Shown: piece after piece, positions 3,967 to 56,564 of the stretch
Layout of the letters: each line of letters begins with the position of its first letter
How positions within the stretch are numbered: the stretch's first letter is position 1
Translations under genes and position numbers: made by a program
Assembly: GCA_000002445.1 (NCBI GenBank)
Contig: CM000207.1
Coordinates: 2,912,001 to 2,976,000, forward strand
Source: Trypanosoma brucei
Lineage: Eukaryota
Direction: 5' to 3'
DNA length: 64,000 bases
Notes under the pieces: model-generated
What the model saw: only the letters and a program-made list of their open reading frames with translations
Databases searched by the model: none
What the model was told of the DNA's origin: nothing

Positions 3967-3994
3967 TATTTCAAAACACAAAGCATTTTTGCTC

Positions 3995-4865
<871 letters not shown>

Positions 4866-5677
4866 TGAAATTTATCAGAAGAAAATGATACAAATGAAAG
4901 AAAGAAGATCAATCAAAATTAGAATGGAAAGGGTGTCTATAAAAAAACGGCGCCTTATCCTCGTGACGTCTTATAATGGTTGTGTTACACGCAGCGACTG
5001 AAGCAAACAAAGGATAAAATTGAATTAGGTACGGAGCTCGGATACGCGACTACAAAGGAGCTCAAGATCCAGCACTGGAAAACTCAAGGAGAACTTTCAA
5101 GAAAGCCGTGTTTCACCCGAAAGCATATTGATTAAGTAACAGAAATCATGGTAGATCCAAAGGAGCTTTATTCTGATGGCGGAACCAAATGTCAAGGGGT
5201 AAGTTCAGTAGAAAATTAATCATAGAATTATTTTTTTGGGGGGGATGTAGTGACAATAAGAAAAGGATAGAGAAGATTTTGTAGGTGAGAGGTGAAGATC
5301 TAAGAAAGTTCTTAAATCTTGCTTTTTCCGGATCTATTATAATAATCCCGCGGAGAGGAGGTCTGTAATTAGCAGCGGAGAGCAGAAACAGGGTCACAAA
5401 ACTTTACCACAGCGGGTATCCAAAGCATAAAAATATAGTCACACTATCTTTACGCCATCCAGAGATGCTATGCAGCCCTTAACAAACCTGCAACCAACCC
5501 ACGCAGCGAAAATCCAAAGGCTGAAGTGCACTAAATAACTACCAAAGCTTCTTTTTTTCGAGCAGTCAAGGGACAGCCGTTTTTGAGAAGCGTTTCCACT
5601 TATTTAGGGAACTTCACACCAACTACAGCGGATAACACCAACGATCAGCAAATAGTATAATAGCGGATCTGAGCACG

Positions 5678-7288
5678 ATGGCTAAAAAAGTATTAGGCTT
5701 TGCTCAACTTGCAACTCTAATAGTTGTGTTGTCACCGTCTTCAATTTACGCCAACGTTGGACCAGGAGACAACGCAGCGGAATTTACCACGCTGTGTCAA
5801 CTAATTTCGCTAGCAGAAGGAGCAGCACAGCCTCCAGCGGCGACAACGGCTCCAAGCGCCGAATACGACGAACTCATGAGACTAAACATGACTCTAAGCG
5901 ACGAAGCTTGGCACGATATGTTCATAAAAAGTAAAGCCGACAAAACATGGCACGACGCAATACCCGCCACCGCGAAGGACCCGGGCGGATGGGCCGAAGC
6001 CTGGCCGACCTGGAGGAAGGCAGCGGAAGAGCTAACACAAGAAGATAAGATGGCCAACATCAAAAGCCTAAACGTCAATGCAGCAAACCCTAAACAGAAA
6101 GCAATGATAATAACGGAAATACGCAAAATGGCAGACGCAGCGCAGGAACTCATGAAAAAGAGGCATACGCTCGACAAAAGCATCGAAAAGCCGCCACAGG
6201 AGTATGCCGCGGCTTTAAAAACTTTGGCCTACGGCGACAAAACCAAAAATAGAAAAACCGTAACGGCCGCCGACGCGTTCAAAGGCGGCAGCACCAGCTT
6301 CAGCACTGACTGCGGCGGGGCGGCGGCCAGCAACAAGATAAAAACAGTCGCAGCCACGATAACTTGCTTGTGCCACAAAGCAAATACACAAAACGAAGAC
6401 CAGGTGTGCGGACGAACAGTTAAGATCACGACAAACACATGGACCGTAAACGGCGCGATCGGCAGCGCAGGGGTCATAACGGAGCCCCTAGGCTTTTGCA
6501 GCGTAGAGCAAGGCACCGACTTAACAAGCTCGGAAATCACAGCAATCCTACGGCAGCTTAAAAGCTTAATCAAAGTCACATCAAACGACGGTATACTAGG
6601 CGCCTCAGACAATGGCAGCTGCGATGCGGACAAAACTCACGGCATCTGCATCAAGTTAACCAACTGGGCGGCCGACGGTAAAGTCGACATAACGAAATTA
6701 GAGTGGGCAAAGCAAGCAGTCGAGCTAGCAAAGGAGCTCAGCAGAAGAGAACACGCAGCGGCATCAGCAGCAGAAATAGACAGCGCGATCAGGAACTTGC
6801 ACAGACAGGCGTTTCGCACGACGCTCTACACAGCGCACATACAGCACAACCCGCATCAGACAGCAACGCCCTTAGATTCAACTTCAAAAAACGATAAAGG
6901 AATGGAAGACAAGAAGAAAGAATGCGAGAAACACAAAAACAACAAAACTTCTTGCACAAATGCTAAATGTATATGGGAAGGAAAAGATGGTAAATCTGAC
7001 ACAGAAGGCGAATGCAAACCTAAAGATGGAGGCAAAGGTACAGCCCAAACAAATGCAGGAACAGGAGATGGAACTGCAGGGACAGGTCCAAATTGCGCTA
7101 GCCAGACTAAAAAAGAGGATTGTGAAAAGGAAAATGTTGGAAAAACAACCCCTGTTTGCGGCTGGAGAATAGGCAAAGATAATGAACCTGATAAAGATAA
7201 AGAAATGTGCCGAAACGGTAGTTTTCTAGTAAACAAACAATTCGCCCTCAGCGTGGTTTCTGCTGCATTTGTGGCCTTGCTTTTTTAA
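5678..7288 (+). CDS. VSG: Intact VSG (536 aa): signal peptide MAKKVLGFAQLATLIVVLSPSSIYA, N-terminal domain, Cys-rich C-terminal domain, and GPI signal GSFLVNKQFALSVVSAAFVALLF
   Basis: Single uninterrupted ORF with all VSG hallmarks. The 70-bp array lies about 0.8 kb upstream. Canonical 3'UTR elements (TTTTCCCC 8-mer at about 7292 and the 16-mer at 7343-7358) lie downstream. Confidence 0.85.
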   Translation: MAKKVLGFAQLATLIVVLSPSSIYANVGPGDNAAEFTTLCQLISLAEGAAQPPAATTAPSAEYDELMRLNMTLSDEAWHDMFIKSKADKTWHDAIPATAKDPGGWAEAWPTWRKAAEELTQEDKMANIKSLNVNAANPKQKAMIITEIRKMADAAQELMKKRHTLDKSIEKPPQEYAAALKTLAYGDKTKNRKTVTAADAFKGGSTSFSTDCGGAAASNKIKTVAATITCLCHKANTQNEDQVCGRTVKITTNTWTVNGAIGSAGVITEPLGFCSVEQGTDLTSSEITAILRQLKSLIKVTSNDGILGASDNGSCDADKTHGICIKLTNWAADGKVDITKLEWAKQAVELAKELSRREHAAASAAEIDSAIRNLHRQAFRTTLYTAHIQHNPHQTATPLDSTSKNDKGMEDKKKECEKHKNNKTSCTNAKCIWEGKDGKSDTEGECKPKDGGKGTAQTNAGTGDGTAGTGPNCASQTKKEDCEKENVGKTTPVCGWRIGKDNEPDKDKEMCRNGSFLVNKQFALSVVSAAFVALLF

Positions 7289-7342
7289 ATTTTTTCCCCT
7301 CAATTTTCCTTAAATAAATTCTTGCTATTTGAAAAAACTTTC

Positions 7343-7358
7343 TGATATATTTTAACAC
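7343..7358 (+). promoter_or_regulatory. VSG 3'UTR 16-mer TGATATATTTTAACAC (mRNA-stability element), exact match
   Basis: Exact 16-mer 55 nt after the VSG stop, preceded by the TTTTCCCC 8-mer. Confidence 0.8.
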
Positions 7359-7480
7359 CTTAAAAATTCACCGAAAAAATTGAGCTGTTTTTTGTAAGTT
7401 GACTGTCTGATTGTCTAGAAATTTTTTCTGGCAACTTAAATTTTTTTTCTTCTTTTCCTGGTTTTTTTTTGAGGAAGTTG

Positions 7481-7586
7481 ATGGGGGGGGTAGTTAGGTT
7501 AGTTAGGTTAGTTAGGTTAGTTAGGGGGTTAGGTAGGCTTAGGCTTAGGCTTAGGATTAGGCTTAGGGTTATTCGGTTAGGGTTAC
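7481..7586 (+). repeat. Degenerate telomeric hexamer tract (TTAGGG/TTAGGT/TTAGGC variants), G-strand on the plus strand
   Basis: GGGGGGGGTAGTTAGGTTAGTTAGGTTAGTTAGGTTAGTTAGGGGGTTAGGTAGGCTTAGGCTTAGGCTTAGGATTAGGCTTAGGGTTATTCGGTTAGGGTTAC, located about 200 bp downstream of the VSG 3'UTR. Confidence 0.7.
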
Positions 7587-7599
7587 TTTTTTCCCTTTC

Positions 7600-9732: not shown

Positions 9733-11195
9733 ATGCGCCAGACTGCAGCGGCGATACAAGCAGCTTTGGCAGCAGCTGAGCCAATAGTACAGAATGCTAT
9801 CAAACTACAACACCAATTAATCATCTATTCCCTTGCAGAAGCGGTCAAAAAGCGGGCTAAAATAGCAGCAATAAGAGCAGCGGCAGCGACAACAGCAATA
9901 AACAACATCTACTCGGCAGCAATAGCGAAAGCCAAAGGAGGAATATACCTAGCAGCAAAAGCAAATATCGTGGCTGGTAGCATTATAGAAGCAACCACAC
10001 TACTACTTGAACAACTCAAAGCGACCGAAGCTTCATGCGACGTCTCATGTCTAACAAATGCAGCGACCCGAAAAACAGCGGTGACGCACAGCCAGGACCT
10101 ACAGGGATGCGATAGCCTAGCAATACCTGACACGGTAAGCCTAGAAGGGCTAGAGAAATTCTCCGACCAAAGCTTCAAAAGCGGAATCCCGGAGGGAAAC
10201 GCAGCGTCGACAGAGAGCAGCTTCGCCAAATGCCTGCTGTTCGAAAACCACCCAAGTGCCACGGGCATGTTCACTGGCAACATGGCAAGCCATCTGACCA
10301 TGATGGCCGGGCTGCTGACAACAGGCACAACGGGCCCAGAAATCCGCCGGATAGACGACCTAGAGCCGACCAGCGCAAGCTCAGCGAACACACCGGCATA
10401 CCTCGAAGCAATTAAAGCCGCTAATGCGTACAAGACGACACCAGAGATAACAGATGACGACCTTTATGCAAGTATCTCTCAAGAATTAACAGGAGACGTA
10501 TTTCTGGCAGAGATCAACTTCGCCATAAACGACGTCAAAGCCAAACCCGAAGAGGTCCCAGCAACTAATGAGCTCAAGGCGGCCGCCAAGCAGATTTTTT
10601 GGCGACAGCGCCACTAAGTTCAAAAGTAAATTCATCAAGGAAATGTTAGAAGAAGAACTGGTGTTTCCATCGGAGCTGAAGCTGACGGCCAGTACAATAC
10701 AGAAGATACCGACTAACAGGTTAAGTGAAGTCGTAGAACTTTTGATTCAAGAAACCATTTCTAAAGAGACACAGGACAAGAAATGTCCAACGAGCCATTC
10801 CGCAGCAGAGAAGTCAACTTCCGAAACAGACGTGACGTGCGAAAAGAAAGGAACAGGAGATAACTGCAAAGATGGATGTAAATGGGGCAGTGACGGACCA
10901 AATAAAAATGCGTAGTGGATAAAACTTACACGCCAAAACAAGTAGATGGAGGAGAAAAAAACTTATAAAATGCTCCGATGCGACAACGGAAGAGAATTGC
11001 AAAAAGGTTGAGGGTAAGAAACCAGAAGGCAAAAATGCAGTTTGTGGACGGACTGATTATGTCGATGGAAGAGGGAAACTACCCGAACACGAATATCTAG
11101 ACGAATGTTTTATAGACAAAAAAATTGGCTCTGAGTACGGCTGCTGCTTTTATGGTCTCGCTGTTTTAATTTTCCTCTATTTTTCTTTCTGAAAT
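9733..11195 (+). pseudogene. VSG: VSG pseudogene (N-terminal domain ORF 9733-10617; C-terminal domain in shifted frames 10568-10915 and to about 11190, with a degenerate GPI tail)
   Basis: VSG-like N-domain without a signal peptide at the ORF start (MRQTAAAIQAALAAAEP...). The Cys-rich C-terminal pieces (...CEKKGTGDNCKDGCKWGSDGPNKNA) are out of frame. A 16-mer variant and telomere-like tract lie downstream. Confidence 0.65.
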
Positions 11196-17590: not shown

Positions 17591-18670
17591 TCACACCGTG
17601 CATCTTCTTTTGATGTAAGGTGAGGCCAGTTTTGCTAGCACACTGCCTTCCGCATGTGGGCACATCAACATGGATGTGTTTGTATGCGGGGAATCAGTGG
17701 CACACAATTTTGTGCTTTTGCTGCATTTAAGCTCGACTCCCTCACCTTTGTGGAAAGCCTTACAGTGTCGGATGAGGGAGTCCCTGCAACTGAGAACTTT
17801 TTGGCACACACCACACTGCACCTCGCCCTTTCCTGGGACGTCAACGTTTCCCTCACGGGCACGCTTACGAGGGAATTGCACCACCATCACGGTACCTTCC
17901 TCCGTCACTATGCTCTTATGTTTGAATTTCTTGTGTAGTGACAGAGAAGAACGTGTACCGAAGCTCGCCTCGCACAGGTCACATTGAAATGGCAGCTTCC
18001 GTGTATCCTGAGGGGCTGGCGCTGCTGGGACGCTACCATCTCCTTGCAATGAGTCCTCGTTCTCTCGCCCCCTTTTCACACGGAAACTACCGCTGCCTAT
18101 GCCATGTATCGTTTGAAGGTGGTGTAATAGTCGGCCTGGCACTGCGAATTTGGAGGCACAGAGGGTACAATGAAGCACCTGCAGTCTCATCGGGACTCGT
18201 GTGCTCGATGGTAAAGGAACGATTGCCACCACTGGAGGGGGCTCCGGGGGGATATCCACTGCAGGTCTTGCATCGCCGTATTTGATCCTCCGGAGGGCAT
18301 CAGCTCGCACAAAGCCGTGTTTGTTTACCATGTGCGTTACAGCACTCGACCGGCATTGGTATGTGGCATTGCATTCCGTACATTTGGTCGGTTCGGAGGT
18401 TCTCTGAAGAGTGCGTGTCGCAACAGTTGGGGCTGTTTGCATTGTTGGCCCTATCGCTGCATGTTGTGGGTTACACCATCGGCACTGTGGAGGCACACTC
18501 GGGTTGATCTTTCGCAACATCCATCCATAGTGTCTTGAAGACCCAACCCGAAAGCGTGCCACTGTTGTTTCTTCTTCCCTCGTCAGTTCTTCTTTATGTT
18601 TTGTTGGAAAGTGGTTGCCCGTGATACCAAACCTATGAGTATTCTCATGGACTTCTTCCGACCTAAGCAC
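17591..18670 (-). CDS. ingi ORF C-terminal segment (359 aa): C2H2 zinc-finger/nucleic-acid-binding domain
   Basis: Repeated C-x2-C...H-x3-H fingers (CTECNATYQCRSSAVTHMVNKHG; CTLCASKFAVPGRLLHHLQTIHG; CDLCEASFGTRSSLSLHKKFKH; CGVCQKVLSCRDSLIRHCKAFH). Confidence 0.8.
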   Translation of the reverse strand: MLRSEEVHENTHRFGITGNHFPTKHKEELTREEETTVARFRVGSSRHYGWMLRKINPSVPPQCRWCNPQHAAIGPTMQTAPTVATRTLQRTSEPTKCTECNATYQCRSSAVTHMVNKHGFVRADALRRIKYGDARPAVDIPPEPPPVVAIVPLPSSTRVPMRLQVLHCTLCASKFAVPGRLLHHLQTIHGIGSGSFRVKRGRENEDSLQGDGSVPAAPAPQDTRKLPFQCDLCEASFGTRSSLSLHKKFKHKSIVTEEGTVMVVQFPRKRAREGNVDVPGKGEVQCGVCQKVLSCRDSLIRHCKAFHKGEGVELKCSKSTKLCATDSPHTNTSMLMCPHAEGSVLAKLASPYIKRRCTV

Positions 18671-18700
18671 TCGCTTCGCATAAGCAATGATGTCGGGGAT

Positions 18701-21523
18701 CTATGTGTCTCGAAACTGTGGTAAATCTGCGGACTTTTTGGCCATTTCATTACAAACCTCATTCCGTTTCACGCCACAATGGCCAAACACAAATTGCTGT
18801 CGGATACGTATCTTCCTTCTCTGAACTTGAAGCAGAAGCCTCCATAGTCGTCTCAGAATTGGGTCCGTTACGGCTAGGGGGCCTGTCTGCAGTGCTGTTA
18901 ACATTGACAGCGAGTCAGAGAAGATGGACAACCTGCTCAGTGTGCTTCTGTATGCCGGAAGCCATTTCAGCAGCCGTTGCAGCCCTATCTCTAATGCTAC
19001 GCATTCCGCTCTGTAACTGCATGAGAGTTCCCCTGCTCCCGTTTTGGGTGCACAAATCAGCGTGTTGTTTCTATAGAGCAGGGCAGCTGCTCCGGACTTC
19101 TTACCGAGGGACACGGATCCATCAGTCCACAATTCGTAGTGCTCTCGCCGCGGTGGCTCCTTCCCCCTCCGTGCAAAATGCCGTGCAATCCACTTTTCGG
19201 AAGCCTCCCTTTTGACATCGTCAGGGTCATCAGCGCACACAGGCTTTATCTGCGTGTGAAACATCGGTCGGCAGCTGTGGCGGAGCGTCGCTGTCTCTAG
19301 TGGGTGCTCGCGTGGCTCAATGCGGAGGTGGGGGTAGGACCGCATGATGCGGGAATGTAAGACTCTGACTGCATGTTTGCTGTGGTATACTTCTTCAGCA
19401 CTGCGCCGTAAACATCCGCCTCGTGACTCACACATCAGCATGAATTTCATGCTGCGCACAAGAGTGGTCGTCTTGAGTGGCAGGAGGTTTGCTTGCAGCA
19501 GAGAGTTCTCTTTGCGCGTCCCATGCGGTATGCCAGCTATGATGCGACTGGCTTTGTGTTGTGCTGCTGCAAGGAGGTCGCGACTTCGTTTTGAAGCGTC
19601 CCAGTACCATACCTCAATGCCATACATGGTGTGTGCCTGTACGAGTGCTACGTAAAAAGCTCTCAGTACTTGTCGTCTTGGCCCCCATGTAGAAGCTGAG
19701 ATGGCTGCTATATGCAGTAGTCTCAAGTCCATGTTGCGTCTCGTTTCGGCTGCATGTGTTGCCATCCCTTGCAGACACTGGAATGTTACTCCTAGAAGCT
19801 TCGGTGTCCTGTCAGCTCCTATTCTTTCGCCGTCCAGTTGTAATGTAAGGGGGTGGCGCTCTATACACCCGAAGAGTGTGCACTTTGTTTTCGCTACGTT
19901 TACAGACATAAAGTACTCTTTTGACCACTGTAACACCACGTTGAGGCCGCATTGCAGTGTGTGGTTGATGACATCCCTCTCTGTGTGCCTCGCAAGTAGC
20001 GTTAGGTCGTCTGCAAAGAATCCGTGCTGCAGTAACGGCACTTCTGCAAGGCGTTGGCTCAACGAGTTCATGACAATAATGAACATGATTGGGCCAAGGA
20101 CAGTTCCTTTTGGCACTCCTCGCTCAAATGTTCTGCTTCTGGAAAGCTTCTCCTTGAATCTCACTCTGCCAGTTCGGTTACTCAGAAATGATACGCACCA
20201 CTTCACAATGTGGTGTGATACCTTCATTCTGTGCATTTCCCTCGCAACTTTGTCGTGGTCTACTGTATCGAATGCCTTCTCGTAGTCAACGAATACAGCA
20301 CCCGTATGAGATTGGTGCGTGGGACGGCAGAGGGCGGCACGGACCTGCAGGAGTTGTTCGAGCGTTGAGCATCCGGAGCGAAAGCCTGATTGCTGCGGCG
20401 TCAGCTGGGACTCAACAGTATCTCTAAGCCTCGCGGCAATTATGCGTTCCATGACTTTGCAGAGACAGCTCGTGAGCGTCACAGGCCTGTAAGAATCGAG
20501 GTCCTCCGCCTTTTTTCCGGCCTTCAGGATGGGGATGATAACACCAGTCTTCCATGCAGGCGGCACGACTCCCGTTCGTAGGCTCTCATTGAATAGCCTC
20601 AGAACAACATTCAGCGCTGTTCTACCGAGATGTTGCAGTGCCTCGTTGTGTAAGCAATCAGGTCCGGCTGCGGATCCACTCGGTAGCAGTTTGATCGATC
20701 TCCGTAGTTCAGCCATCGTGATGGGACTGAACTCACTCGCTATCGTCTTTATGGGTGCCGGTGGGTGTGAGTCGGGGTGCCTTCTTGCGCGGGACGAGTA
20801 CAGTTTACTGAACCTCTCAGCTTGACGGTAGTCCGTGATGGCCGCGTTATCAACAAGTACAGCCGGTGTGGTTAGTGGTCGTGGCGCGTATACCTTCTTG
20901 ACAATGTGCCAACTGCAGCGGTCTGACACCGCAAGTCTGGAGCATAGTGTGCTCCATCTCTTCTTTGTGGTACGGTCCAGGATCTGCTTACGTGTGGCTA
21001 CCAACTTTTCCCTTCGGTGGGAGGGTCCGCATCCAGGGATCTCTTCATCGAGTTTCGCGAGCTCAGGTGTCCAATGTGGTGGCGTTGCTCTGCAGCCACG
21101 GGGGACGGAGACCTTCGTCGCAATACGGATGGCGGAGCTCAATTTCTGTTCCAGGGTGTTGACGTTCTTCTCTCTACCAATTTTCCTGCAGAGCTCGTCA
21201 ACCTTGAGACGGAAATTCCTCCAGTTAGCTTTTAGCCATGCGTACATGGGCTTTCGAAGCCGCGGGCAACTCAGTGCATCTGTGTCGTCTCCAACGATAA
21301 CGTCGAAAAATATGTGATGGTGATCGCTATAGGGAGAATACAGCGATGTCCACGTGTACACTGTGCAATTCCTTGAGAGTGTCACATCAGGGGTGGACTC
21401 CCCGTGGTGGCGCGCGTACCTGGTGGACTCACCAGTGTTGCAGACCAGAAACTGGTTGTTAATGCACCACTGTGTGAGGGTTTCACCCTTGGTATTTGGT
21501 GGGTTCGCGCGATCCCATGCCAA
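18701..21523 (-). CDS. ingi ORF central segment (940 aa): AP endonuclease C-part, reverse transcriptase, RNase H
   Basis: RT motifs (..VTLTSCLCKVMERIIAARL.., FVDYEKAFDTVDHDKV, FADDLTLLA) and an RNase H-like C-part (ELWTDGSV...FGHCGVKRNEVCNEMAKK). Confidence 0.85.
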   Translation of the reverse strand: MAWDRANPPNTKGETLTQWCINNQFLVCNTGESTRYARHHGESTPDVTLSRNCTVYTWTSLYSPYSDHHHIFFDVIVGDDTDALSCPRLRKPMYAWLKANWRNFRLKVDELCRKIGREKNVNTLEQKLSSAIRIATKVSVPRGCRATPPHWTPELAKLDEEIPGCGPSHRREKLVATRKQILDRTTKKRWSTLCSRLAVSDRCSWHIVKKVYAPRPLTTPAVLVDNAAITDYRQAERFSKLYSSRARRHPDSHPPAPIKTIASEFSPITMAELRRSIKLLPSGSAAGPDCLHNEALQHLGRTALNVVLRLFNESLRTGVVPPAWKTGVIIPILKAGKKAEDLDSYRPVTLTSCLCKVMERIIAARLRDTVESQLTPQQSGFRSGCSTLEQLLQVRAALCRPTHQSHTGAVFVDYEKAFDTVDHDKVAREMHRMKVSHHIVKWCVSFLSNRTGRVRFKEKLSRSRTFERGVPKGTVLGPIMFIIVMNSLSQRLAEVPLLQHGFFADDLTLLARHTERDVINHTLQCGLNVVLQWSKEYFMSVNVAKTKCTLFGCIERHPLTLQLDGERIGADRTPKLLGVTFQCLQGMATHAAETRRNMDLRLLHIAAISASTWGPRRQVLRAFYVALVQAHTMYGIEVWYWDASKRSRDLLAAAQHKASRIIAGIPHGTRKENSLLQANLLPLKTTTLVRSMKFMLMCESRGGCLRRSAEEVYHSKHAVRVLHSRIMRSYPHLRIEPREHPLETATLRHSCRPMFHTQIKPVCADDPDDVKREASEKWIARHFARRGKEPPRREHYELWTDGSVSLGKKSGAAALLYRNNTLICAPKTGAGELSCSYRAECVALEIGLQRLLKWLPAYRSTLSRLSIFSDSLSMLTALQTGPLAVTDPILRRLWRLLLQVQRRKIRIRQQFVFGHCGVKRNEVCNEMAKKSADLPQFRDT

Positions 21524-25433: not shown

Positions 25434-26880
25434 TTATTCTAGAAGCAAAACTGCGAGAAAAAGAGGCGACTTGTTAATAACAGCATAATCGTTTCCTGTA
25501 GTGTTTGTTGTTCCTGAATTTTCACTGTTTTCTGTTTTTATTTTCTTTTTAACTTGTTTCTCATCTACTTCGCACTCCCCTTTCTCGTTATCCCCTCCTT
25601 TCCATGAGCATTTCGCTCCTGTGCAAGCTTTTTTGTTGTTTTTGTGTTGTGCGCATTCTTTTGTTTTTGCTAAGGTTTCGGCGTCACTATTTTTTTTTTG
25701 ACATTCTTCTGAGCAACGTTTTTGTTTGCCCACGGTCGTGCGTGGTAGATTAGGTCCTTCGTTATCTTGGCTTTCGCCTTTACTGCATCTGCAGTGTGCT
25801 GTCGGATTGCAACGGCTTTTTTATGTTTTCGTAATTTTCCTAGCAGGCTATGAAGTTGTCCCAGCCAAGGTATCACTTCGCTGGCTTTTCCCGCTCCTTG
25901 TGAAAGGCCGTTGTAGCTTACACATATGCCTCGCGTCTCTTGTGCTGAGCAGTCTGTACCTAGATACACACCGAGTGTGGCTTTACTTGTGCATAACTTT
26001 AGAAGGCTTGCTATAGCGTCTATTTTTGCTTCTAGCTTCGCTGCAGTTAGCTCGGCTGTTTTTTGAGTGTCACACAGCTTTTTCACTTCTTCCATCGTCG
26101 CTTGGTTTGGTGGCGTACCGGCGACGGTCCAATTCGAGGTCATGGCAGGATCGGCTCGGCATACTTTGTCTTGATTATGGGCATTGTTGGTGCTTTCTTT
26201 CATGCAGAGGCACGCCAGCGTGCCGAGGACCGTTTTGGTTTTGCCGGTGTTTTTTTCCCCCGTGCAAAGTGTGTCGCGGCTCCCTCCTGCCTGCTGCCTC
26301 AAAATTGCCTGTCGCTATCTCTGCGCCAACCGGCTCTTTGTCCCTCCCATACACCGCTGCGTTTAGCATTTGTTGCACGGTTTCGGTGGTTAGAAGGTCG
26401 GTTTTCGGTGCTTCCGCCTCTGCTTAGAGTTGAAGCGCTGCTGCTTCCGCTGCAATTTTTTGTACGTCGCAGCAGATGTTGGCTATCTGTTCCTCAGTTG
26501 CCCCTTTTAGGCCCCGCTGCTCTCTCTTGGTTTTAAGTTTATCGTCGGTCAGAATTTCTTCTTTGCTTTTCCATTCGTCCCATTTGGCCCCCCAGTCTGT
26601 TGTTTGATTGTAGTCGGCCTCAGGGAAGTCCCTCGCCGTGTTTTTTCCTGGCCCTGCCCTGAAGATTTCGCGCCATTCGTTTGTCGCCACCGACATGTTG
26701 AGGTCTAAGAGGTCGTTGAGGGCTGATGGGGGCCCGACTTTGGATGCGGGTAACATAGATCGCTGGCCGGCGAGTGTTACGATCGCACAAAGCGCCGTCG
26801 CTTCGTTAGCATTCGCGAGTTCAGAAAAATCGGCTGCCACCTTGAGTAAAAATACCGATTATAGCACTGTCGACAGGAAC
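25434..26880 (-). pseudogene. VSG: VSG pseudogene (frameshifted: N-domain 26424-26840, middle 25670-26302, C-terminal domain and GPI tail 25434-25733 ending ...GNDYAVINKSPLFLAVLLLE*)
   Basis: B-type N-domain (..ATALCAIVTL.., NMSVATNEWREIF), then ..LACLCMKES..., Cys-rich C-terminus and an Asn-type GPI signal, in three different frames. Confidence 0.7.
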
Positions 26881-27924
26881 AGTTGACGTGCCCACAGCAT
26901 TGAATATTTTGGTTTCGCTTGCTCAAGTTCCCTCGCTATGATTGTTCTTATCTTGTCCCTTGTAGGCTCTGCCTGTCGTGATAAGCAGTGAGGGGGATCT
27001 GGGGAGGTTAGTAAGTTTTGTTTTTTTAAGGTTGTTACTGCGGTGTTTGATTGTTTCGCATGTTGTTGGCTGCACCTTGGCGACGAGTTGTGGTGCAATA
27101 ATAGTGGATCGGCAGAATTTTCTTGTCTAACGGGTTCGCCGCTGTTCGGAGTCATGCATCCTGATTCCTTGTTTTTCCTCCCATAAGAACCGGTTGCGCA
27201 GGCGCTCGGATTTAAGTTGACGGTAACGCTTTTACTTACCCGGGAGCCTTGCGATGTTATCTCTTTTCGCTGCAAATGATCTACTCCTGTTTTCAAAATC
27301 TAACCCATATTAATTTAAAAATCCGCAAATCACATTCATCCATCCGCCTATAAACACCATTCTCTTTCCCCTCTATTTTTCAACTAATCTTCAACCCACA
27401 AAACAGCTTCGTGAATCAGTATAAACAACTTACTCTAATTGTTAACGCCTCTGTTCAACGTTGTGTGAAAAAGCAGATCCTTTCCCATTTATGCAGTAGA
27501 TTCTATCAGTTTTTGAGTAGCATATGGAAATCCTTCGCTTCTACCAACCCTGATGTATCATTTCTTTTACTGGGGTGTTGTCGCAAATACTGTCGTTTCG
27601 CTATGTATTTTATTTATTTTTTGTTAACTGCTGCTATCACAGTTTAAAAAATATAAAATCCACTTTTCCTTTACACTGCCCTATCTCTTTCCCTCTCGCA
27701 TTTATTACCCTTCATAACCTCCTTGTGTATGGTTATGCACGTATACATCTTTGCGCTTAAAATTGTGGATATTATATATTTATTTTTCTTCCTCTGTTTC
27801 TGCAGTTCCTTTCATTAATATTTCTGGTTTCCACTATATCTCACTTACTCCGTCAGCTACTTCCATTTCATCCTCAAAATTGTTTAATATCCTTCATTTT
27901 GGGCCGTGACTTTAGTCTTTCTTT

Positions 27925-28460
<536 letters not shown>

Positions 28461-28474
28461 AGGGATCTCGCAGG

Positions 28475-28640
28475 CATCGTGAGGGAAGTATGGGGTAGTA
28501 CGAGAGGAACTCCCATGCCGTGCCTCTGGTTTCTGGAGTTTGTCGAAGGGCAAGTGCTCCGACGCTATCGCACGGTGGTTCTCGCCTGAACGCCTCTAAG
28601 CCAGAAACTAGTCACAAGACCGGGTGCCCGTAAAAGCAAA
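28475..28640 (+). rRNA. Large-subunit rRNA fragment (sarcin-ricin loop / helix 95 region through the conserved GAACGCCTCTAAGCCAGAA block), an isolated partial copy and presumably non-functional
   Basis: GGGGTAGTACGAGAGGAACTCCC forms the universal SRL hairpin (AGUACGAGAGGAAC). The downstream CTGAACGCCTCTAAGCCAGAAAC matches the universally conserved LSU 3'-domain sequence (eukaryotic GACTGAACGCCTCTAAGTCAGAATCC). No other rDNA was recognised nearby. Confidence 0.55.
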
Positions 28641-28693
28641 AAGCAAAAAGAGAAAGAATAGGGAAAAATATAGTGTACATGTAAAGTGCGTTC

Positions 28694-28716
28694 CATATAT
28701 ATATATATATATATAC
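28694..28716. repeat. (TA)11 dinucleotide repeat
   Basis: Direct read: atatatatatatatatatatata. Confidence 0.85.
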
Positions 28717-31700
28717 ATACTCATTTATATAAGTGTGTGGGCACGGCTTGTGTGTATCTCTATATGGCTCACTGACGTTGAAGGGAATGCAAAAGTGTAT
28801 AATAACACTACATATGCGTGTGTATGTGTGTATATTACTTTGTATTTCTGTGTGAGACGTGTTTTATGTGCGGGCATATACGTATATAAATGCTCTTTAT
28901 ACCTCCGTCTCTTCCAGTTGGCTGTTCACGCTCAAGAAAAAAAAAACATATTCGAAACGAATATTATCTCGAATCGCCACTTCTCTTATCTGGTGGGCTC
29001 TGCCCGCCATTGTCGGCGCCAAGTACCTTCATTTTCACAAGATCTGTTTTGAACGCGTTGAACAAAAAACAAAAGCAACGGAGGAATTTCATTACTTATA
29101 AAATATATGTAATGATGCGGAGGTGTGAGAGGTATTATGTTATGCTTGCATCAACAATGCGCATGCATATTCACTCTATGTGTGTGTATGTTTTTGTCTG
29201 TATTGTTGCGCGTCACACTGTGTGGCACTATATATACATATATTAGGCAATGTTCCAATTATTTTTTGGTGCATTGTGTTGCTATGTTTGTGTAAGTGCC
29301 ACCAACTCTGTGAACCAAACCTATCTCTCTGTATATATTTATATACAATATAATAATATTTTGTCCCTCTCCAAACGAGAGTACATGCATGGACTGGCAT
29401 GAGCGGCACGCTCCACGACCGTGGGGCTCGAGGGGCACTTTACGTCCCGAGGCGCTGAACCTTGATGCTTGGAATTTCATGCTCAGGGACTTTTGAAGAA
29501 GTCATATATGTGTGCTTGTATATGTGTATGTGTGTTGTGTTACGTTGCGTCGAGATGTTGGGGCCGCATTCTCTACTATGTTTGTAGTCTCCTATATTGC
29601 ATCACGTTGTGACGGGAAGCGTGTTATTGGATGTGTGTGTATGGTCACTCGGATATTCTGCTATGCCGCAATCGTTCCATGGAAGAATAAAATTAATAGC
29701 ATGACATTGTGTTTTATAATAATATATTCTGTAAGCCTTTATTTTTTGCGAGATTCCCATTTACATATGAGTCTGTGTGCTGATTTCTGGAGAGTTGTCA
29801 TTAATACACACCAGCTCATCTCATCATAGTCTGAAAAAGCCTTACTCTATTATATATACATGGATTTGGCCTAACAGAGAATGAAAACACAGATCCTGTT
29901 GTATATAACATCCAATATGTCCAAGAGCCAAGGGTACATTTATTTATTGATGTTTACATAGATCCCATATTTGTCGCACTGGAGTTTATGCTCTTGATAT
30001 CACAATATATTATATGCTGAGGGGAGAGCTTGCACACGTATGGGGAATTTATAGGAATATTATAATAAGCTCCTTTGTGTTTGCCGCTTTTCTAGAAATG
30101 TGAAAATAATGCAAACTGTATATTTTGTGGCTGTGAAGGTTTGTTGTAATATATCGACATAGTTTTCCCCTGTACATACTAATAATATACCATGAGGCGT
30201 TATGTGCACAATATGGGAAGTGTGGCTACTGTATATGTTAGTTTTTAAATCTTCCTTCGGATGAAACACTAGTGTCACACCTCTCCTTCTCACATCATAT
30301 GTATGTGCTTCGCCTCACATTATTACTCCATACCATCGTGGTCTATTGGAAGAAATGATGTGGAATGATAGATTGGGTGAAAAACGAAAAGATCAGAAAG
30401 GCATGACTATCTTTCTCTAGTGTGTGGTGTACGCTGTTGATGCTTTGAAAGTTCTGCATCATCAAGTGATATCATATACCCGTATGCTGCGCTTGTGCAT
30501 ACGTATGTGTATATATTTTCTTTGATACATTCTCGGCGTAATGGAGAGTGTGTCCATGTCAGTTATTTTTTGTTTCGTTGACGAACTTACACACTTCAAT
30601 GCGAATATCCATCATTTTACACATGATGTAGTCGCTTAGCCCTATGCTAGGTGCGTGTGGTTGGTAAAAGATTAAGAAGAGAGAGGGTCTAAACAATATG
30701 TTAGAGGCTCGAAAGTAATGTTCAATTCAAAAGGATTTGGTTCTTTCCTTTCATCCCCTTCAAACTTTTTATTGCTACTGAACAAGAGGTTTTGATGGTG
30801 CATAAATGCGAACACTTAGTTCCTACCGTCGTACATGTTTTTTTTTTGGAAAAGTATAGACTGTTGTGTCAAAATACACGCATGTTCTGCGAGTAAGGAG
30901 AAACTCACGGTTATTGATGAAGTAAATGCGATTGGGCACAAAAATGAAAATTCCTCTATTCAATATACGCTTGTGGTTGTGAATTCCCATTATCGACATT
31001 GGAACTTCGAATGTCCTCGGCATGCTGTTGCAAGTTGTTTTAGTGAAGCGGCGTGTCAGCACCTGTTTTGTATTTTTTATTATTAATCACTTGGACTCGC
31101 TCAGCGTCTGACAAAGCGCTAGACTTCGCTTCTTTATTTTACGTGTCGCTGCTCTAATGTCTATGTTTAATATATGTTTATATATCAACATGTTTATTCA
31201 TTTAAATATTTTTGAGCGTTTAGGCATGTTGCAGGGTAAAAGTAACCTCATACAGTGGCTACTGGATTTGGCTATTCGATGTGGTTGTTGGAATTGGAAG
31301 TGTCTCCATATCTTTCGTTCCACCGAGAGGTAGAGTGCCATCATCCCCCTTCAAAAGCTCATATTTATGCAGTCTAGAAAATATGTTGAGGAAAAGAGTA
31401 TATCAATACACAAATGTCACGACATACACACTATTCATTTGGTATCTGTATTCAAGAAATGAAATGATTAAGACCGTGGCTTATAGTTCTCTGTTTTGGA
31501 GAGCTCTTTATATACATATATATATTTTGTGGACAAAAGAACTAACGTAATTGTGTGACCTTTCCGGGCATACATAACAGGAAGTTGATGGAAGCGGTTG
31601 CGTATCGCTCTACTCAGTGGTGAGTGCTGCTTTGGTGCGCAGTTACAACCTATCACCTATTATTATCACTATTATAGAAATAAATCACTCCTAATATTCA

Positions 31701-32005
31701 TAAAATAAACAACATGATCCAAAGTAGCGAATGTTCCAAAGGGCACTCATTTTCATACCCTATCACCATACCACTTCTCACCCACAGTCACTATTATACA
31801 CAATTCACTAAAATTTTCGTATTTTTCGAGTTTCTCAACCTTTCATAATTTTCATCAGAAAATGTTAAAATATAGCAAATTTTAAAAAATCCTTAGAATA
31901 CTAAAATGCTAACCAACTCATAAAAGCAGAAGAAGTAATCAAAGCGAATTTTTCATTTAGAATAATTCTGGAATATTTGCCTTTAATCCATCAACAGACA
32001 GATTT

Positions 32006-33406
32006 TTACGGATTTCTGACCCTCATTTTTCTTTTTTTACAGGCAGCCTTATCTTTGTGCCTTGTACACCTGTCTGATGGTATTTTGCCATCTTGATTTG
32101 TTGTATCTTCCTTCTCTATTTCTATACCTACTACGCACTTCTTTTCACCGTTTTCTGAAACTTCTTTGCACCCATCTTTGCAGTTATCTTCTTTCCCTTT
32201 CTTTTCGCATGTGGTGTTGGTTATTGTTACAGTAGCTGCTTGCTTTGTGGCTGGTGGCGCTGTCGTTTGTGTTGCTTGCGGGGGTTGTGGTATGGGCTGT
32301 GAGTATGCTGCTCGAGCTGTGTCTATCAGCCGCCTCGCGATAGCTGCTTGCGTCGCCGCTTCATTTGCCTTTTCTATGCTTTGTTGCATTGTGTTGTAGG
32401 CGCTGATTAGTTTTTCTCCCCATTTTATGCTTGCTAGCCCCTTTCCCGTTTTTTTGGTGTAAGCTGCACTGTAGTCGACGCATACTTCGCCGTCGCCGCC
32501 GTTGCAGTTGCCGGCGCCTCGCTTACCTAAGATATGGTAGACGGTTGTTCCTTGCTTGTGCGTCCGAATTCCTGCTGTGATACGTGTGATAATGCTGCCT
32601 AGTTCGGTCAGCGCTATTGGTGACGTCTCCTGTTTCTGGCATTCCCCGAGTACTAGGGTGTGTGGCGACCCTGTTAGGTCTGAGTTCCAGGCTATCGCCA
32701 GGCCACTGTTTTCGCATGTCTGCGGGTTGGGTGAACCGCTTTCAGCACACAGACAGATCATGTCGCCGATCACGGATTTGCCGCCGTTGGCGCTGCATGC
32801 CGCTCCCCAGTTAGTGAGTGCTGTTAGCGCTTTGGCAAGTACGAATTTGCTATCTTCTACGCCCTCGCCGTAGATTGCTGCTGATATTTGTTTAACTACT
32901 TGAGCTGGAAGCGTTGTGGTTGCTTCCTCTTTGGCTCCTTTGTACAGGGTATTCGTTGTTATCAGCTTCTCAAGGGTTCCATTTATTGAGCGGCGAGCTA
33001 CGGCAGCTGCCCATCCGGTTGGGGGCGGGTTGTTGTCTAACCAAGATTTTCCACTATCTTTTTTGGTTGTTTCGTGTTTAATCTGCAACCATTTGTCGTA
33101 CGTTTTCTGCCAGTGGCTCTTAAAGGGTTCGGCTTGCGCATGTTTGTGTTTTTGGGCGTAGGAGGCGGACTCGGGGTCGCCTGAGAAAATATCTTGCCAC
33201 TCATTGGCTGCCACTGACATGTTCATCTTTTCTATGTCCGCTATGTCACTATCAAAGTCGTCTGGCAGCTTCGGCATGGCTACTTCGCGCCCTCGCAAGT
33301 TTGCCGCATCGCAAAGCAGTAATAGGTCATGTCTGTTTTCTAGCGTTAATGCCGCCCTTCCGTGACTCGTCAGTGCTAGAATGGTGATTGCTAACGTAAA
33401 AAGCAT
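32006..33406 (-). CDS. VSG: VSG (466-aa ORF: signal peptide and complete N-terminal domain). The C-terminus is aberrant, with in-frame TAA (32006-32008) and TGA (about 31991-31993) separating it from an in-frame GPI tail EKFALITSSAFMSWLAF* (about 31899-31950). Likely a pseudogene as it stands
   Basis: MLFTLAITILALTSHGRAALT... B-type N-domain (NMSVAANEWQDIF, ICLCAESG), C-domain ...CEKKGKEDNCKDGCKEVSENGEKKCV.... The ORF ends ...CKKRKMRVRNP* without a hydrophobic tail. The tail is found in the same frame after two stop codons. Confidence 0.75.
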   Translation of the reverse strand: MLFTLAITILALTSHGRAALTLENRHDLLLLCDAANLRGREVAMPKLPDDFDSDIADIEKMNMSVAANEWQDIFSGDPESASYAQKHKHAQAEPFKSHWQKTYDKWLQIKHETTKKDSGKSWLDNNPPPTGWAAAVARRSINGTLEKLITTNTLYKGAKEEATTTLPAQVVKQISAAIYGEGVEDSKFVLAKALTALTNWGAACSANGGKSVIGDMICLCAESGSPNPQTCENSGLAIAWNSDLTGSPHTLVLGECQKQETSPIALTELGSIITRITAGIRTHKQGTTVYHILGKRGAGNCNGGDGEVCVDYSAAYTKKTGKGLASIKWGEKLISAYNTMQQSIEKANEAATQAAIARRLIDTARAAYSQPIPQPPQATQTTAPPATKQAATVTITNTTCEKKGKEDNCKDGCKEVSENGEKKCVVGIEIEKEDTTNQDGKIPSDRCTRHKDKAACKKRKMRVRNP

Positions 33407-43739: not shown

Positions 43740-44360
<621 letters not shown>

Positions 44361-44698: not shown

Positions 44699-46150
44699 TT
44701 ATCTTTGCATTCTGAAGTTTTTTTTGGTTCCTCCTGTTCTTGCTTGGGTGTCTTGTTGTTCTGCTGCTGCCTCATTCAATTTGCAGTGTTTTCCGTCTTT
44801 TTCATCAGAACCTGTCCATTTGCAAATCGGACTCTTTTTTCTGCATTCAGCTGATTTCGTTATTTCCTCGCATTGGTCGGCACTTTGAGGCAATGCTCTT
44901 CTATCGGCCAGACTTGCTGCTTGTTTTGGGGCTGCCGCTGCCATCAATGCTATTGTGGTCATTGTTTTGTTTAATTGCTGGATGTTTTCCGCTAGCCGGA
45001 ATGCTTTCTTGGCTGCCCCCCGGGCTTTTTCTATGGCGTCGGCAGCGCCAAGCATTTTCTGTGCCCACCCGATTGCTAGATTGTCGCCGCTTTGTGGCCC
45101 GTAATAAACGCAGCACCCACCGTTGCTGGCGTCTATGTCGTCGCAGCCGTCATTGCCGTTGCCTATTGCTGCGCCCAGCATGTAAGTCTTTGCTTTGTTG
45201 GTTCCAGACCCAGTCGATGCTGCTTGTAGGACCGCACTGACGGTTGCTCTTAGCGCCGCTGCCGTCACTAGCTTAGCTTTGCTGTGCTTCTTGCATGCAT
45301 CGTACAACTCCTTCCATTGGGCTGGACCGTTTGCCATGTTTGCCCAGGTTGTGTCGCTGGCCGAAATTGAAACGGTACCGCACACTGCTGCCTGGTCCTG
45401 TTGTGTGTCTTTGCTACAGATGCATAGGAAATCCGCTGCGATCGATTCCCCTGCGATTTTTCCCTTTTTGCCTCCGCTTCCAGCATTGCCGCATGCGTCT
45501 ACTCGGCTTTCTACCGTTGTCGCCGTCACTTTCGTTTGTTTGTCAGCAACCGGGCCCACCGCTTGTTTGAGCAACGTCTGCGCTGTGTCAGCTTTGGCTT
45601 TTAGTAGTTCCGCCCTGAGCTCCGTCGCCAACTGCAGTACGGCTTGGGCTTGTTCTTCCAGCGCTTGCCTTGCCGTGTCAGAGAAGTCCGCACCTTTTAT
45701 TAGCTGATAGGCCTTGTCCGTCTTTGCTGTTTTGTGCCTATTAGCTGCCTTGACGCAGTTGGAGGCTGCCACCTCAACGCATTCCTTGCCTGCTGTTGAA
45801 CTTGGTTTGCTGATTGCTTCCTCAGCACTGTTCTTTGCCGCTAGTTCGGCTAGAGCTTCTGGGCTGAGTAGCGTTATGTTGATTAGCGCCGCTGCTTCCT
45901 CGGCGTCTGTTGGTTCGGCTGGTATCTCTGGCGCTGCTACCTGGGCTGAAGCGACATCGAGAGCGTTGCAAAGCAGTGCAAAGTCGCTAGCATGTGTTCC
46001 GGCTGCAGGGCCGGCCGCTCCTGCTGGTCCTGCTGCTACCGCAGCCATAAGCAACCCTGTGATAACGAATAAAGTTTGCTCTGAGCGAGTCGTGGATGCT
46101 TTTCTTCTTGCTGCTTGTTCCTGGGCAGTTGTGCTGGACTTCTGTCGCAT
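44699..46150 (-). CDS. VSG: VSG (483-aa ORF, N-terminal and most of the C-terminal domain open). A frameshift and a TGA (rc at about 44650-44652) separate the 3' end from the GPI tail KDYSFTVNKKFTLIAAALVGFIF* (about 44585-44640). Likely a pseudogene as it stands
   Basis: A-type N-domain (..FALLCNAL.., ..CICSKDTQQDQAAVCG..), C-domain ..CKWTGSDEKDGKHCK... In the +1 frame the 3' end reads ..CTRNCKWENNA*KDYSF..., with the stop where the consensus Cys codon sits. Confidence 0.7.
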   Translation of the reverse strand: MRQKSSTTAQEQAARRKASTTRSEQTLFVITGLLMAAVAAGPAGAAGPAAGTHASDFALLCNALDVASAQVAAPEIPAEPTDAEEAAALINITLLSPEALAELAAKNSAEEAISKPSSTAGKECVEVAASNCVKAANRHKTAKTDKAYQLIKGADFSDTARQALEEQAQAVLQLATELRAELLKAKADTAQTLLKQAVGPVADKQTKVTATTVESRVDACGNAGSGGKKGKIAGESIAADFLCICSKDTQQDQAAVCGTVSISASDTTWANMANGPAQWKELYDACKKHSKAKLVTAAALRATVSAVLQAASTGSGTNKAKTYMLGAAIGNGNDGCDDIDASNGGCCVYYGPQSGDNLAIGWAQKMLGAADAIEKARGAAKKAFRLAENIQQLNKTMTTIALMAAAAPKQAASLADRRALPQSADQCEEITKSAECRKKSPICKWTGSDEKDGKHCKLNEAAAEQQDTQARTGGTKKNFRMQR

Positions 46151-55059: not shown

Positions 55060-56564
55060 GGCAGCAGCACTAATGGCAACACTATTGAAAAGCGACAGTG
55101 CGTTCAGAAGCCAACGCGGCGGACTTGCACTTGCTTTGTGCAGCCTTCAGGCTAGGCGGAGTGGACATGCAGTTGCCAGAAATAAAGGAGCTGAAACAAG
55201 CAGACATAGATGAGCTCAGAACAATGAACATGTCAACAGCAGAAGCCAACTGGTAGGAGTTATTTAAAGGGGACCCTAACAAAGACACGTGGCAGGCACG
55301 AAAAACCACAATAAAAAAATAACCTTTCTTAATGCACTGGGAACAATCATTCCCACAATGGCAGCAAGACTATCAACGAGCAATTAAGACAGGCAACGGC
55401 AAGACATGGCTAGCAGAACACAAAGCACCATCCAACGAGTGGCACAGGCAGCTAGCCGCACATACCATAAATGAAACACTTGAACAGATATTAAGTCTGC
55501 GAAAAAGCTACGACAAGATTAAAAGCGATATAACCGAAACGAAGGCCAAACAAGTGAAGGAACTCATATGCGAAGCTCTGTACGGTGAGGGGAAAACGGA
55601 CTGCACACCAAAAGCAACAGTAACAACAACAGCCGACACAACATGGTCGACCAGCTGCGGCGACAACGGCGGCAAAAGCATCGTAGGAGACATGCTCTGC
55701 CTGTGCTGCGCAAACAGCGGCACCAATACTGCGGACAGTGACAACAGCAATATAGCGTGCGACTGGACCAGCAGCATTATCGGCAAATTCGAAGCCGTCA
55801 CAGCCAAATGCCCCAGCCAAAAACCCGCAAAAATAACGCCACAACTACTTGCAACGACAATAGCGCAATTAAAAAGCGGGATAAGGCACAAGGACCAAGG
55901 AAGCGCAATCAAATTCCACCTCGGAAAAGACCCTAACAGTTGCACCGGAAACAGCGGACAACTTTGCTTGGAATACCCTGCCGCTGCCAAAGGAGGCAGC
56001 GGAGGCGCGGGTCTAGACGCAATACCATGGCTCAAAAAGATGAACGACGCACAGGCAAAGGCAGACGAAATAGTGGCCTCGGCAGCTGAGGCACAAAGCA
56101 CGGCCATGCTCATAGAGCTTCTAATAGCATCAGCGAAAGCCACATACAGCGACCCGGCTGTCAACATACAAACCAGCCAAGAATACATTACAGGCGTGGT
56201 GCCACCTATCCCTAACCCACGTCAAGCAAGTACAACAAATAAAACTTGCATGTTAAAAGGCACCGGAGATGCCTGCAAAGATGGCTGCAAAGAAATTACA
56301 GAAAATAACCAAAAAAAGTGTGTAGTAGATGCAGAAGCGGCGAAGCAACCAGCGCGATCAGGAAATGGAGGAAATGGAGAAACAGCAACAGATAAGTGTA
56401 GCGCGGCGAAAACTCGTGGGGAATGCGCTGCAGTGAAATGTTAAATTCCAAAAGATAAAAAAGCTGTTTTTTGGTGGAAAGAAGGCAAGTGCAAGGATTC
56501 CAGCTTTCTTGTCCTTAAGAAATTGGCTCTGCTGGGTGCTGTTTTTACCGCCTTGATTTTCTAA
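55060..56564 (+). pseudogene. VSG: VSG pseudogene (N-terminal start region with frameshifts at about 55060-55330; 370-aa ORF 55332-56444; a single in-frame TAA at 56442-56444; then an in-frame tail IPKDKKAVFWWKEGKCKDSSFLVLKKLALLGAVFTALIF*)
   Basis: A-type N-domain (..ICEALYGEG.., ..MLCLCCANSG..), C-domain ..CMLKGTGDACKDGCKEITENNQKKCV... Apart from the one TAA, the gene would read through to a complete GPI signal. Confidence 0.75.

Follow-up and report, generated by a model that had tools for sequence, protein, structure and literature searches.

A 3'-terminal copy of the ribosomal DNA transcription unit interrupts a 70-bp repeat in a Trypanosoma brucei variant surface glycoprotein gene array

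In this study we analyzed a stretch of 64,000 nucleotides (nt) of Trypanosoma brucei DNA (contig CM000207.1, positions 2,912,001 to 2,976,000; hereafter the window), which carries an array of variant surface glycoprotein (VSG) genes. Our results indicate that positions 28420-31637 are a truncated, promoterless, 3'-end copy of the T. brucei ribosomal DNA (rDNA) transcription unit, and that this copy is very probably an inert relic. The segment contains the last ~30 nt of internal transcribed spacer 5 (ITS5), the small rRNA genes srRNA2, srRNA6, and srRNA4 with the intervening ITS6 and ITS7, and at least 0.7 kb of the 3' external transcribed spacer (3'ETS), or, including intergenic spacer, probably 2.1 kb. 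It corresponds to about the last 12% of the large subunit (LSU) region together with downstream spacer, a promoterless 3' tail of the unit, and it is inserted within a single 70-bp repeat unit that separates two silent VSG cassettes.

The canonical T. brucei unit has the order 18S - 5.8S - LSU-alpha - srRNA1 - LSU-beta - srRNA2 - srRNA6 - srRNA4 - 3'ETS (PMC6411936). As reference we used the published, positioned T. brucei rDNA primers (Chikne et al. 2019, PMC6411936 Supplementary Table S1), which were mapped to the window by script; a 20-mer with up to 2 mismatches is expected by chance ~2e-4 times in the window. The primers that cover ITS5 nt ~107 through 3'ETS nt 602 fall on the plus strand in colinear order over 28420-30227 with 0 to 2 mismatches, the ITS5 primer giving a weaker match. 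The window copy thus shares with the canonical unit its order, spacing, and sequence from the 3' end of ITS5 through the 3'ETS, with identical srRNA6, ITS7, and srRNA4 primer sites; it differs in having nothing upstream of ITS5 nt ~107, in having diverged in ITS5, ITS6, the 3'ETS, and one srRNA2 position, and in lying in a VSG array and not at an rDNA locus.

The individual parts, all on the plus strand, can be delimited as follows. The ITS5(107-127) antisense primer matches partially from 28420 (14/15 nt for AATGCTTTTATACAC at 28420-28434, then an indel) and identifies the ITS5 remnant, the last ~30 nt of the LSU-beta/srRNA2 spacer, as the left end of the insert (28420-28449). It is followed by srRNA2 (~28450-28631, about 181 nt; LSU helices H94-H97 with the sarcin-ricin loop), which is recognized by Rfam, by environmental contigs, and by primers; the srRNA2 sense primer lies at 28573-28589 with 1 mismatch, and the 3' end is placed at ~28631 because the ITS6(5-24) sense primer is exact at 28636-28655. 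ITS6 (28632-28966; primer-defined, AT/TG-rich, G+C content of 34%) is unconserved in other kinetoplastids, carries an (AT)12.5 run at 28695-28719, and contains the reverse complement of a second ITS6 primer at 28761-28781 (20/21, diverging after). The srRNA6 gene (28967-29044, about 76-78 nt) has exact sense (28967-28986) and antisense (29027-29044) primer sites. In ITS7 (29045-29358) both primers are exact, ITS7(65-84) at 29109-29128, which sets ITS7 nt 1 at 29045, and ITS7(294-314) at 29298-29316. The srRNA4 gene (29359-29494), which forms the 3' end of the LSU rRNA and is supported by environmental homology as well, contains three exact sites, namely, sr4(1-20) at 29359-29378, a second sense primer at 29369-29388, and sr4(116-136) at 29475-29494. 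The lengths of srRNA4 (136 nt) and ITS7 (314 nt) are exactly those of the published T. brucei numbering. Five primers then follow in order through a 3'ETS (29495-30227) colinear with published nt 1-602: 3'ETS(1-20) at 29495 (2 mismatches), 3'ETS(149-168) at 29643 (1 mismatch), 3'ETS(396-415) at 30021 (2 mismatches), 3'ETS(489-509) at 30115 (1 mismatch), and 3'ETS(583-602) at 30208 (1 mismatch). The remaining 1.4 kb of the insert (30228-31637) has a G+C content of 38%, like the 3'ETS. Unlike ordinary inter-VSG sequence, it is without a paralogue in the rest of the window, and it contains neither a tRNA gene nor a notable tandem repeat.

The rRNA identity of the left part was also supported by a covariance model. 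In a scan of 27500-32500, Rfam LSU_rRNA_eukarya (RF02543) matched window positions 28473-28862 (+) to model positions 3007-3399 of 3401 with 95.6 bits (E=1.6e-22), and the posterior probability was high over 28473-~28632 (model 3007-~3161), which is the whole H94-H97 domain within LSU domain VI. The sarcin-ricin loop GGGGTAGTACGAGAGGAACTCCC is located at 28492-28514 and the downstream conserved block CTGAACGCCTCTAAGCCAGAAAC at 28586-28608. A preliminary description had taken these two motifs as signs of genuine LSU rRNA, which the score bears out far beyond chance, and had suggested a complete small rRNA species or a fragment, possibly accompanied by rDNA spacer, in the VSG array. Indeed, srRNA2 is full length: H94 is closed by GGCAUC...GGUGCC in the Rfam alignment, the gene spans the entire block conserved across kinetoplastids, and spacers are present. 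The colinear primers over 28420-30227 extend the identity well beyond the ~165 bp originally recognized, into the TG-rich flank. The fragment is therefore not isolated, as had been proposed; it is the whole 3' block of the unit, srRNA2, srRNA6, and srRNA4 with their spacers. The 3 kb said to be free of VSG and retroelement features occurs only once in the window (self-BLAST detected no second copy of 28435-31660), but it is not featureless, since it holds two more small rRNA genes, and the supposed lone GC-rich island at ~29380-29480 is srRNA4 itself (29359-29494, G+C content of 56% versus 34-37% in its flanks). The same contrast holds throughout, the three srRNA genes having 53-57% and the spacers 34-37%. 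Stretches of (TA)n and TGTGTATG are normal T. brucei rDNA spacer sequence; TGTGTGTATGTG-type stretches are also present in the segment.

The 3' part of the Rfam match, which aligned 28745-28862 to LSU helices H99-H101, is spurious, because these positions belong to ITS6 and the true LSU 3' end is in srRNA4. A scan of 28900-29560 alone did not recognize srRNA6 or srRNA4, because these pieces are too short and too divergent to be found by the LSU model on their own. We also observed that the 95-bit LSU fragment found by the 5-kb scan is missed when Rfam cmscan is run on all 64 kb, both in gathering mode and in E-value mode; short rRNA fragments can thus drop out of window-scale scans through the filters. 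At the protein level, a 142-amino-acid open reading frame (ORF) at 28624-29049 matched no homologous proteins, nor did a chimeric 3.5-kb query of all 54 stop-to-stop ORFs on both strands.

For comparison with other kinetoplastids, we used 38 metagenome contigs (L001-L038) retrieved with the 28-nt sarcin-ricin loop hairpin. BLAST against these rDNA contigs revealed that only three blocks of the insert are conserved, srRNA2, srRNA6, and srRNA4, in the canonical order, which is kept in 36/38 of the contigs. The srRNA2 block (28449/51-28629/32) shows 84-95% identity and the srRNA4 block (29363-29491) 74-92% identity to environmental kinetoplastid rDNA. Conservation of srRNA6 (28969-29042) is weaker, being best in L027, with partial matches in 10 other loci. 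No conservation was detected against the 38 contigs in the spacers or beyond 29494. The boundaries of the mature RNAs are therefore fixed independently of the primers. L010 contains a complete unit, with a long small subunit (SSU) match at 680-2837, 5.8S at 3049-3217, and a full LSU model match at 3627-7587, and its srRNA4-homologous block ends where the Rfam LSU model ends. Another environmental homologue, L033, gives the same partial LSU match as the window (106 bits). In this contig a second, partial copy of the srRNA4 block lies ~400 bp downstream of the first (496-623 and 907-1011), which suggests that the 3' end of its rDNA unit is locally duplicated. The 28-nt T. brucei hairpin, stem included, is identical in the 38 contigs sharing the split srRNA2/srRNA6/srRNA4 layout, and the combined length of ITS6, srRNA6, and ITS7 among L001-L038 ranges from 145 to 788 nt.

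The rest of the rDNA unit was searched for in the full 64-kb window with about 45 primers and a tolerance of up to 3-4 errors. No primer for the 5'ETS (8 primers), SSU (9), ITS1-ITS4, 5.8S, LSU-alpha (11), srRNA1, or LSU-beta (8) maps in the window; the LSU-beta set included one at nt 1466-1486, near the LSU-beta 3' end. The chromatin immunoprecipitation (ChIP) primers of Stanne and Rudenko (from the supplement of PMC8034637) for the rDNA promoter (core and -600 region) and for the "rDNA spacer" were likewise unmapped in the window. Every part that a complete functional unit would carry upstream of srRNA2, that is, promoter, 5'ETS, 18S, 5.8S, LSU-alpha, srRNA1, and LSU-beta, was thus unmatched, and what precedes 28420 is 70-bp repeat and VSG flank. 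The lack of an RNA polymerase I (Pol I) promoter and of the 18S, 5.8S, and large LSU pieces, together with the location in a silent array, is the reason why we regard the copy as most likely an inert relic.

Both ends of the insert fall within one and the same repeat unit, whose motif, judged by its consensus, we take to be the 70-bp repeat. Read on the minus strand, the 3' flank of the VSG gene at 32006-33406 (-) is followed by the proximal part of this unit (31638-31680, -), comprising its triplet-rich part and its GT-rich part, ...ATAATAGTGATAATAATAGGTGATAGGTTGTAACTGCG; the flank itself (31660-31980) is common to five other VSG cassettes by self-BLAST. The unit breaks off at ...TATAATAGTGATAATAATAGGTGATAGGTTGTAACTGCG, which ends at 31638, the insert follows, and the unit then resumes with ATATAATAATAAT...(TAA)~138, beyond which lie one or two further 70-bp units and a VSG pseudogene. 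This distal part (27926-28419, -) consists of 1-2 units at 27926-28003 and of ~138 TAA triplets. Tandem Repeats Finder describes 28004-28417 as 69 copies of period 6 with 98% matches, and the triplets in 27926-28419 share 92% identity by BLAST with the arrays at 609-1103 and 4052-4563. The tract is part of the cassette that contains the VSG pseudogene at ~25670-26302 (-). The preliminary description had placed the segment directly after a reversed 70-bp array, which agrees with the one or two units and ~138 ATT triplets that we find at 27926-28417, and its boundaries of 28440-31650 were essentially right; self-BLAST and alignment of the junctions refine them to 28420-31637 (3,218 bp). The junctions are uncertain by a few nucleotides, because the primer is silent on ITS5 upstream of nt 107.

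Intact units at three sites in the window, at 44.3 kb (downstream of the VSG gene at 44699-46150), ~0.6 kb, and ~4.0 kb, read [triplet-rich]-G(T/C)GTTGT(G/A)AGTG(T/C)G-TATATACGA-ATATAATAAT...(TAA)n. When aligned to these three, the sequence obtained by joining 31638... to ...28419 rebuilds one 70-bp unit minus the 9-bp TATATACGA. The insert therefore lies between the GT-rich part and the (TAA)n tract of a single unit, antisense to both flanking VSGs, and the rejoined sequence agrees with the make-up of a 70-bp repeat unit (triplet-rich part of the TGA/TAA type, GT-rich part, TATATAC, and (TAA)n) in the expected place, which Pfam and BLAST show to be between a VSG 3' flank and the next VSG. That both junctions occur in one 70-bp unit speaks for the entry of rDNA into an existing VSG array rather than for the spread of VSG sequence into an rDNA locus. 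The 8-mer TATATACG, the motif missing from the interrupted unit, also occurs in the ITS5 remnant at 28435-28442 in minus-strand reading, inside the insert and 16 nt from the ITS5-side junction; it may represent repair microhomology or a coincidence in TA-rich sequence. Near-pure TAA/ATT expansions are found in several 70-bp tracts beside VSGs of the array (28004-28417, 43851-44327, 623-1451, and 4099-4590) and reach about 138 and 159 triplets, far beyond the triplet run of a single 70-bp unit. 70-bp repeats are known as short tracts beside silent subtelomeric VSGs, are implicated in starting VSG recombination, are bound by repair proteins, and are enriched in RPA (PMC12975129).

The copy has started to diverge from the functional rDNA units. 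In primer-covered spacer there are 16 differences (mismatches or indels) in about 225 nt, compared with 1 in about 104 nt of primer-covered mature sequence, where the srRNA6 and srRNA4 sites are exact and the srRNA2 site carries a G>C change at 28585. At this position the window has C, whereas the T. brucei srRNA2 primer, 29/29 distinct environmental kinetoplastid sequences, and the Rfam consensus have G, and in the Rfam alignment the short helix capping the conserved GAACGCCUCUAA loop thereby loses a G-C pair, which becomes C·C. A C>A change at 28614, seen in the window alone, breaks an inner-H94 G-C pair that is intact in 29/29 comparators, and changes at 28609 and 28622 turn pairs into G-U wobbles; besides 28585, four changes confined to the window at columns that are otherwise invariant (28609, 28614, 28622, and 29393), and others such as 29466 and 29469, may be Trypanosoma specific rather than signs of decay. 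The differences at primer sites, together with ~131 extra bp in the 3'ETS, imply that the copy is a distinct paralogue that is no longer homogenized with the functional units. Most likely it contributes nothing or almost nothing to ribosomes.

Orphan rDNA pieces of this kind are already annotated in T. brucei. The 2024 re-assembly of the Lister 427 genome defined 16 rDNA regions, and subtelomeric rRNA genes as well as a lone small-rRNA trio on chromosome 8 are annotated in this strain (PMC11666725; bioRxiv 10.1101/589622); the statement that rDNA in a VSG array is unexpected was therefore too strong. In the rRNA gene list of Kraus et al. (bioRxiv 10.1101/589622, Supplementary Table 1) the trio appears as Tb427.08.443/.446/.449, and its read counts match three classes, those of the srRNA4, srRNA6, and srRNA2 genes of complete units on chromosomes 2, 3, and 9. 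From this we infer that the trio is an orphan srRNA2-srRNA6-srRNA4 block like that of the window. The equal read share suggests that Tb427.08.449 is identical to functional srRNA2, unlike the window copy with its change at 28585; this would be explained if the window represented another locus or another strain, or if the change were erroneous. The Lister 427 orphans resemble the window copy in being small rRNA genes without 18S or 28S alongside, some of them subtelomeric, and differ in that the papers list genes without structure, truncation point, or insertion into a 70-bp repeat. In the literature searched, we found no description of the structure of orphan rRNA pieces or of their relation to 70-bp repeats.

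Several points weigh against the interpretation of the segment as an inert rDNA relic inserted into a 70-bp repeat. Its rDNA identity was sampled at primer sites, which cover ~17/181 nt of srRNA2, 38/78 of srRNA6, and 50/136 of srRNA4. Between published nt 168 and nt 396 the 3'ETS of the copy (window 29663-30020) exceeds the length given by the numbering by ~131 bp, and tandem- and internal-repeat scans of the insert revealed no internal duplication or repeat to account for the extra length. Further downstream, 30228-31637 is presumed to be 3'ETS or intergenic spacer by its contiguity, its uniqueness, and its composition, and none of the ChIP primers for the rDNA promoter, the -600 region, or the rDNA spacer maps to it. 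The empty site was deduced from paralogous repeat units, not from an insert-free allele. The change at 28585 could be an assembly error or a typing error in the primer, and, with all other mature-region primers matching exactly, transcription of the region could in principle yield small rRNAs.

The last point leads to the possibility that the copy is a functional orphan, in which srRNA2, srRNA6, and srRNA4 are transcribed by read-through or from a cryptic promoter and supply small rRNAs, or in which the 3'ETS acts as a Pol I terminator, boundary, or nucleolar-contact element. All srRNA6 and srRNA4 primer sites and both ITS7 sites are exact, so that processing signals may be intact, and Micro-C contacts have been reported between subtelomeric rDNA genes and rRNA clusters (PMC11666725). 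The read counts of the chromosome 8 trio Tb427.08.443/446/449 equal those of functional copies, probably as a result of multi-mapping. Against this stand the absence of rDNA promoter and 5'ETS sequence from the window and the nature of the plus-strand upstream region, which holds a 70-bp tract, a VSG pseudogene, and an ingi element, all three in reversed orientation, and also the disruption of an invariant srRNA2 pair by the change at 28585. In addition, the small rRNAs would be needed in equimolar amounts with LSU-alpha and LSU-beta, and an extra trio would bring no obvious benefit. We therefore consider a function of this kind very unlikely.

An assembly chimera, in which genuine rDNA reads were mis-joined into a VSG-array contig at low-complexity TA/TAA sequence and the fragment is absent from the locus, seems equally improbable. 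The left junction does lie at the end of a ~400-bp pure triplet array, a type of sequence where assemblers fail, and earlier Lister 427 assemblies contained rDNA regions that had been collapsed or wrongly put together (PMC11666725). However, both junctions are in one 70-bp unit, and rejoining them restores the unit, which a random mis-join would not do. Comparison with the published functional sequence furthermore shows 17 differences at primer-covered positions in addition to the ~131 extra bp, which points to a distinct paralogue and not to reads of functional units that were misplaced, and orphan small-rRNA trios and subtelomeric rRNA genes have been annotated independently in T. brucei.

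We attach just as little weight to retroposition, that is, to a partly processed precursor that was reverse transcribed, for instance by the ingi/RIME machinery, and then integrated. The insert does start inside a transcribed spacer, and the precursor contains ITS5 through the 3'ETS (PMC6411936); an ingi-type element with reverse transcriptase, RNase H, and endonuclease domains lies 7-10 kb away (~17.6-21.5 kb). The hallmarks of retroposition are nevertheless missing. The insert lacks a poly(A) or A-rich tail at its 3' end (31600-31637, ending ...GCTGCTTTGGTG at 31637), there is no target-site duplication, ~9 bp of the target being missing instead, and self-BLAST detected no retroposon sequence at either junction. 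Beyond srRNA4 the insert also continues for 2.1 kb, far more than the 602 nt of 3'ETS that the primers document, and the 70-bp repeat is not known to be a preferred ingi target. The lack of both A tail and target-site duplication suggests that the insertion occurred at the DNA level. Retroposition corresponds to the earlier idea of a captured transcript, which is disfavored by the spacers and the 3'ETS of at least 0.7 kb as well as by these two features.

For the rDNA relic, the most economical mechanism would be one in which ectopic DNA was captured or copied in the course of repair. The fragile 70-bp/TAA repeat would have broken, a genomic rDNA stretch would have been captured or copied to mend it, and ~9 bp of the 70-bp repeat would have been lost during repair; before the event, the insert-free site would have read ...GTTGTAACTGCG-TATATACGA-ATATAATAAT.... 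A more far-reaching proposal is that the insert preserves the trace of a double-strand break at a 70-bp repeat whose repair drew on nucleolar rDNA for filler or template, and that the 3'ETS and terminator it has kept might affect Pol I termination, R-loops, or nucleolar contacts. We consider this unlikely as a whole. If it were true, it would show directly, at the sequence level, that Pol I-transcribed rDNA and VSG recombination repeats have exchanged DNA, for instance at a time when the cassette occupied an active Pol I-transcribed expression site near the nucleolus, and an effect on the silent array would agree with the reported Micro-C contacts that link subtelomeric rDNA genes to rRNA clusters.

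Eukaryotic genomes commonly contain truncated rDNA relics, and in other eukaryotes rRNA pseudogenes and orphan rDNA fragments are scattered outside the nucleolar organizer regions. Like the window copy, they are partial, promoterless, and spacer bearing, they occupy ectopic and often subtelomeric or heterochromatic sites, and they diverge from the homogenized arrays. The present case differs in its target, the 70-bp repeat, which is a recombination element of antigenic variation, and in containing three separately processed small rRNAs that are peculiar to kinetoplastids. Within T. brucei, RIME was first discovered inserted in an rRNA gene. As in that case, rDNA is here tied to mobile or rearranged DNA, and an ingi element is present in the window; the roles differ, however, in that rDNA is the inserted sequence and not the target.

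The finding is of value mainly for annotation and read mapping, and because it marks a 70-bp repeat that was probably repaired in the past; the feature is otherwise ordinary and shows no sign of function. Orphan srRNA2/srRNA6/srRNA4 copies in VSG arrays attract multi-mapping rRNA reads, and such multi-mapping can fake transcription, ChIP, or Hi-C signal in silent subtelomeres. Orphan copies can also pass for functional rDNA loci, and the read counts of the chromosome 8 trio show such an even spread of reads. The clean break in a single 70-bp unit provides a small, concrete case of foreign DNA fixed at an element thought to initiate VSG recombination. The insert is, moreover, a datable marker that can be scored as present or absent across strains and subspecies, and its junctions are open to microhomology analysis.

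As for the surrounding array, the ingi-type element is a non-LTR (long terminal repeat) retroelement at ~17591-21523 (-), largely intact in appearance and lying within the VSG array; it has two adjacent ORFs, one of 359 amino acids with a C2H2 zinc finger and one of 940 amino acids with endonuclease, reverse transcriptase, and RNase H domains. ORFs of the VSG_B type were identified with Pfam at 5678-7288, 25670-26302 (fragment), 32006-33406, 44699-46150, 55332-56444, and 59877-61436. Four VSG ORFs of the window were looked up by exact sequence, and none had a database record. Among these otherwise B-type VSGs, an A-type VSG fragment (Pfam Trypan_glycop, partial), probably a pseudogene, is located at 9733-10617 (+).

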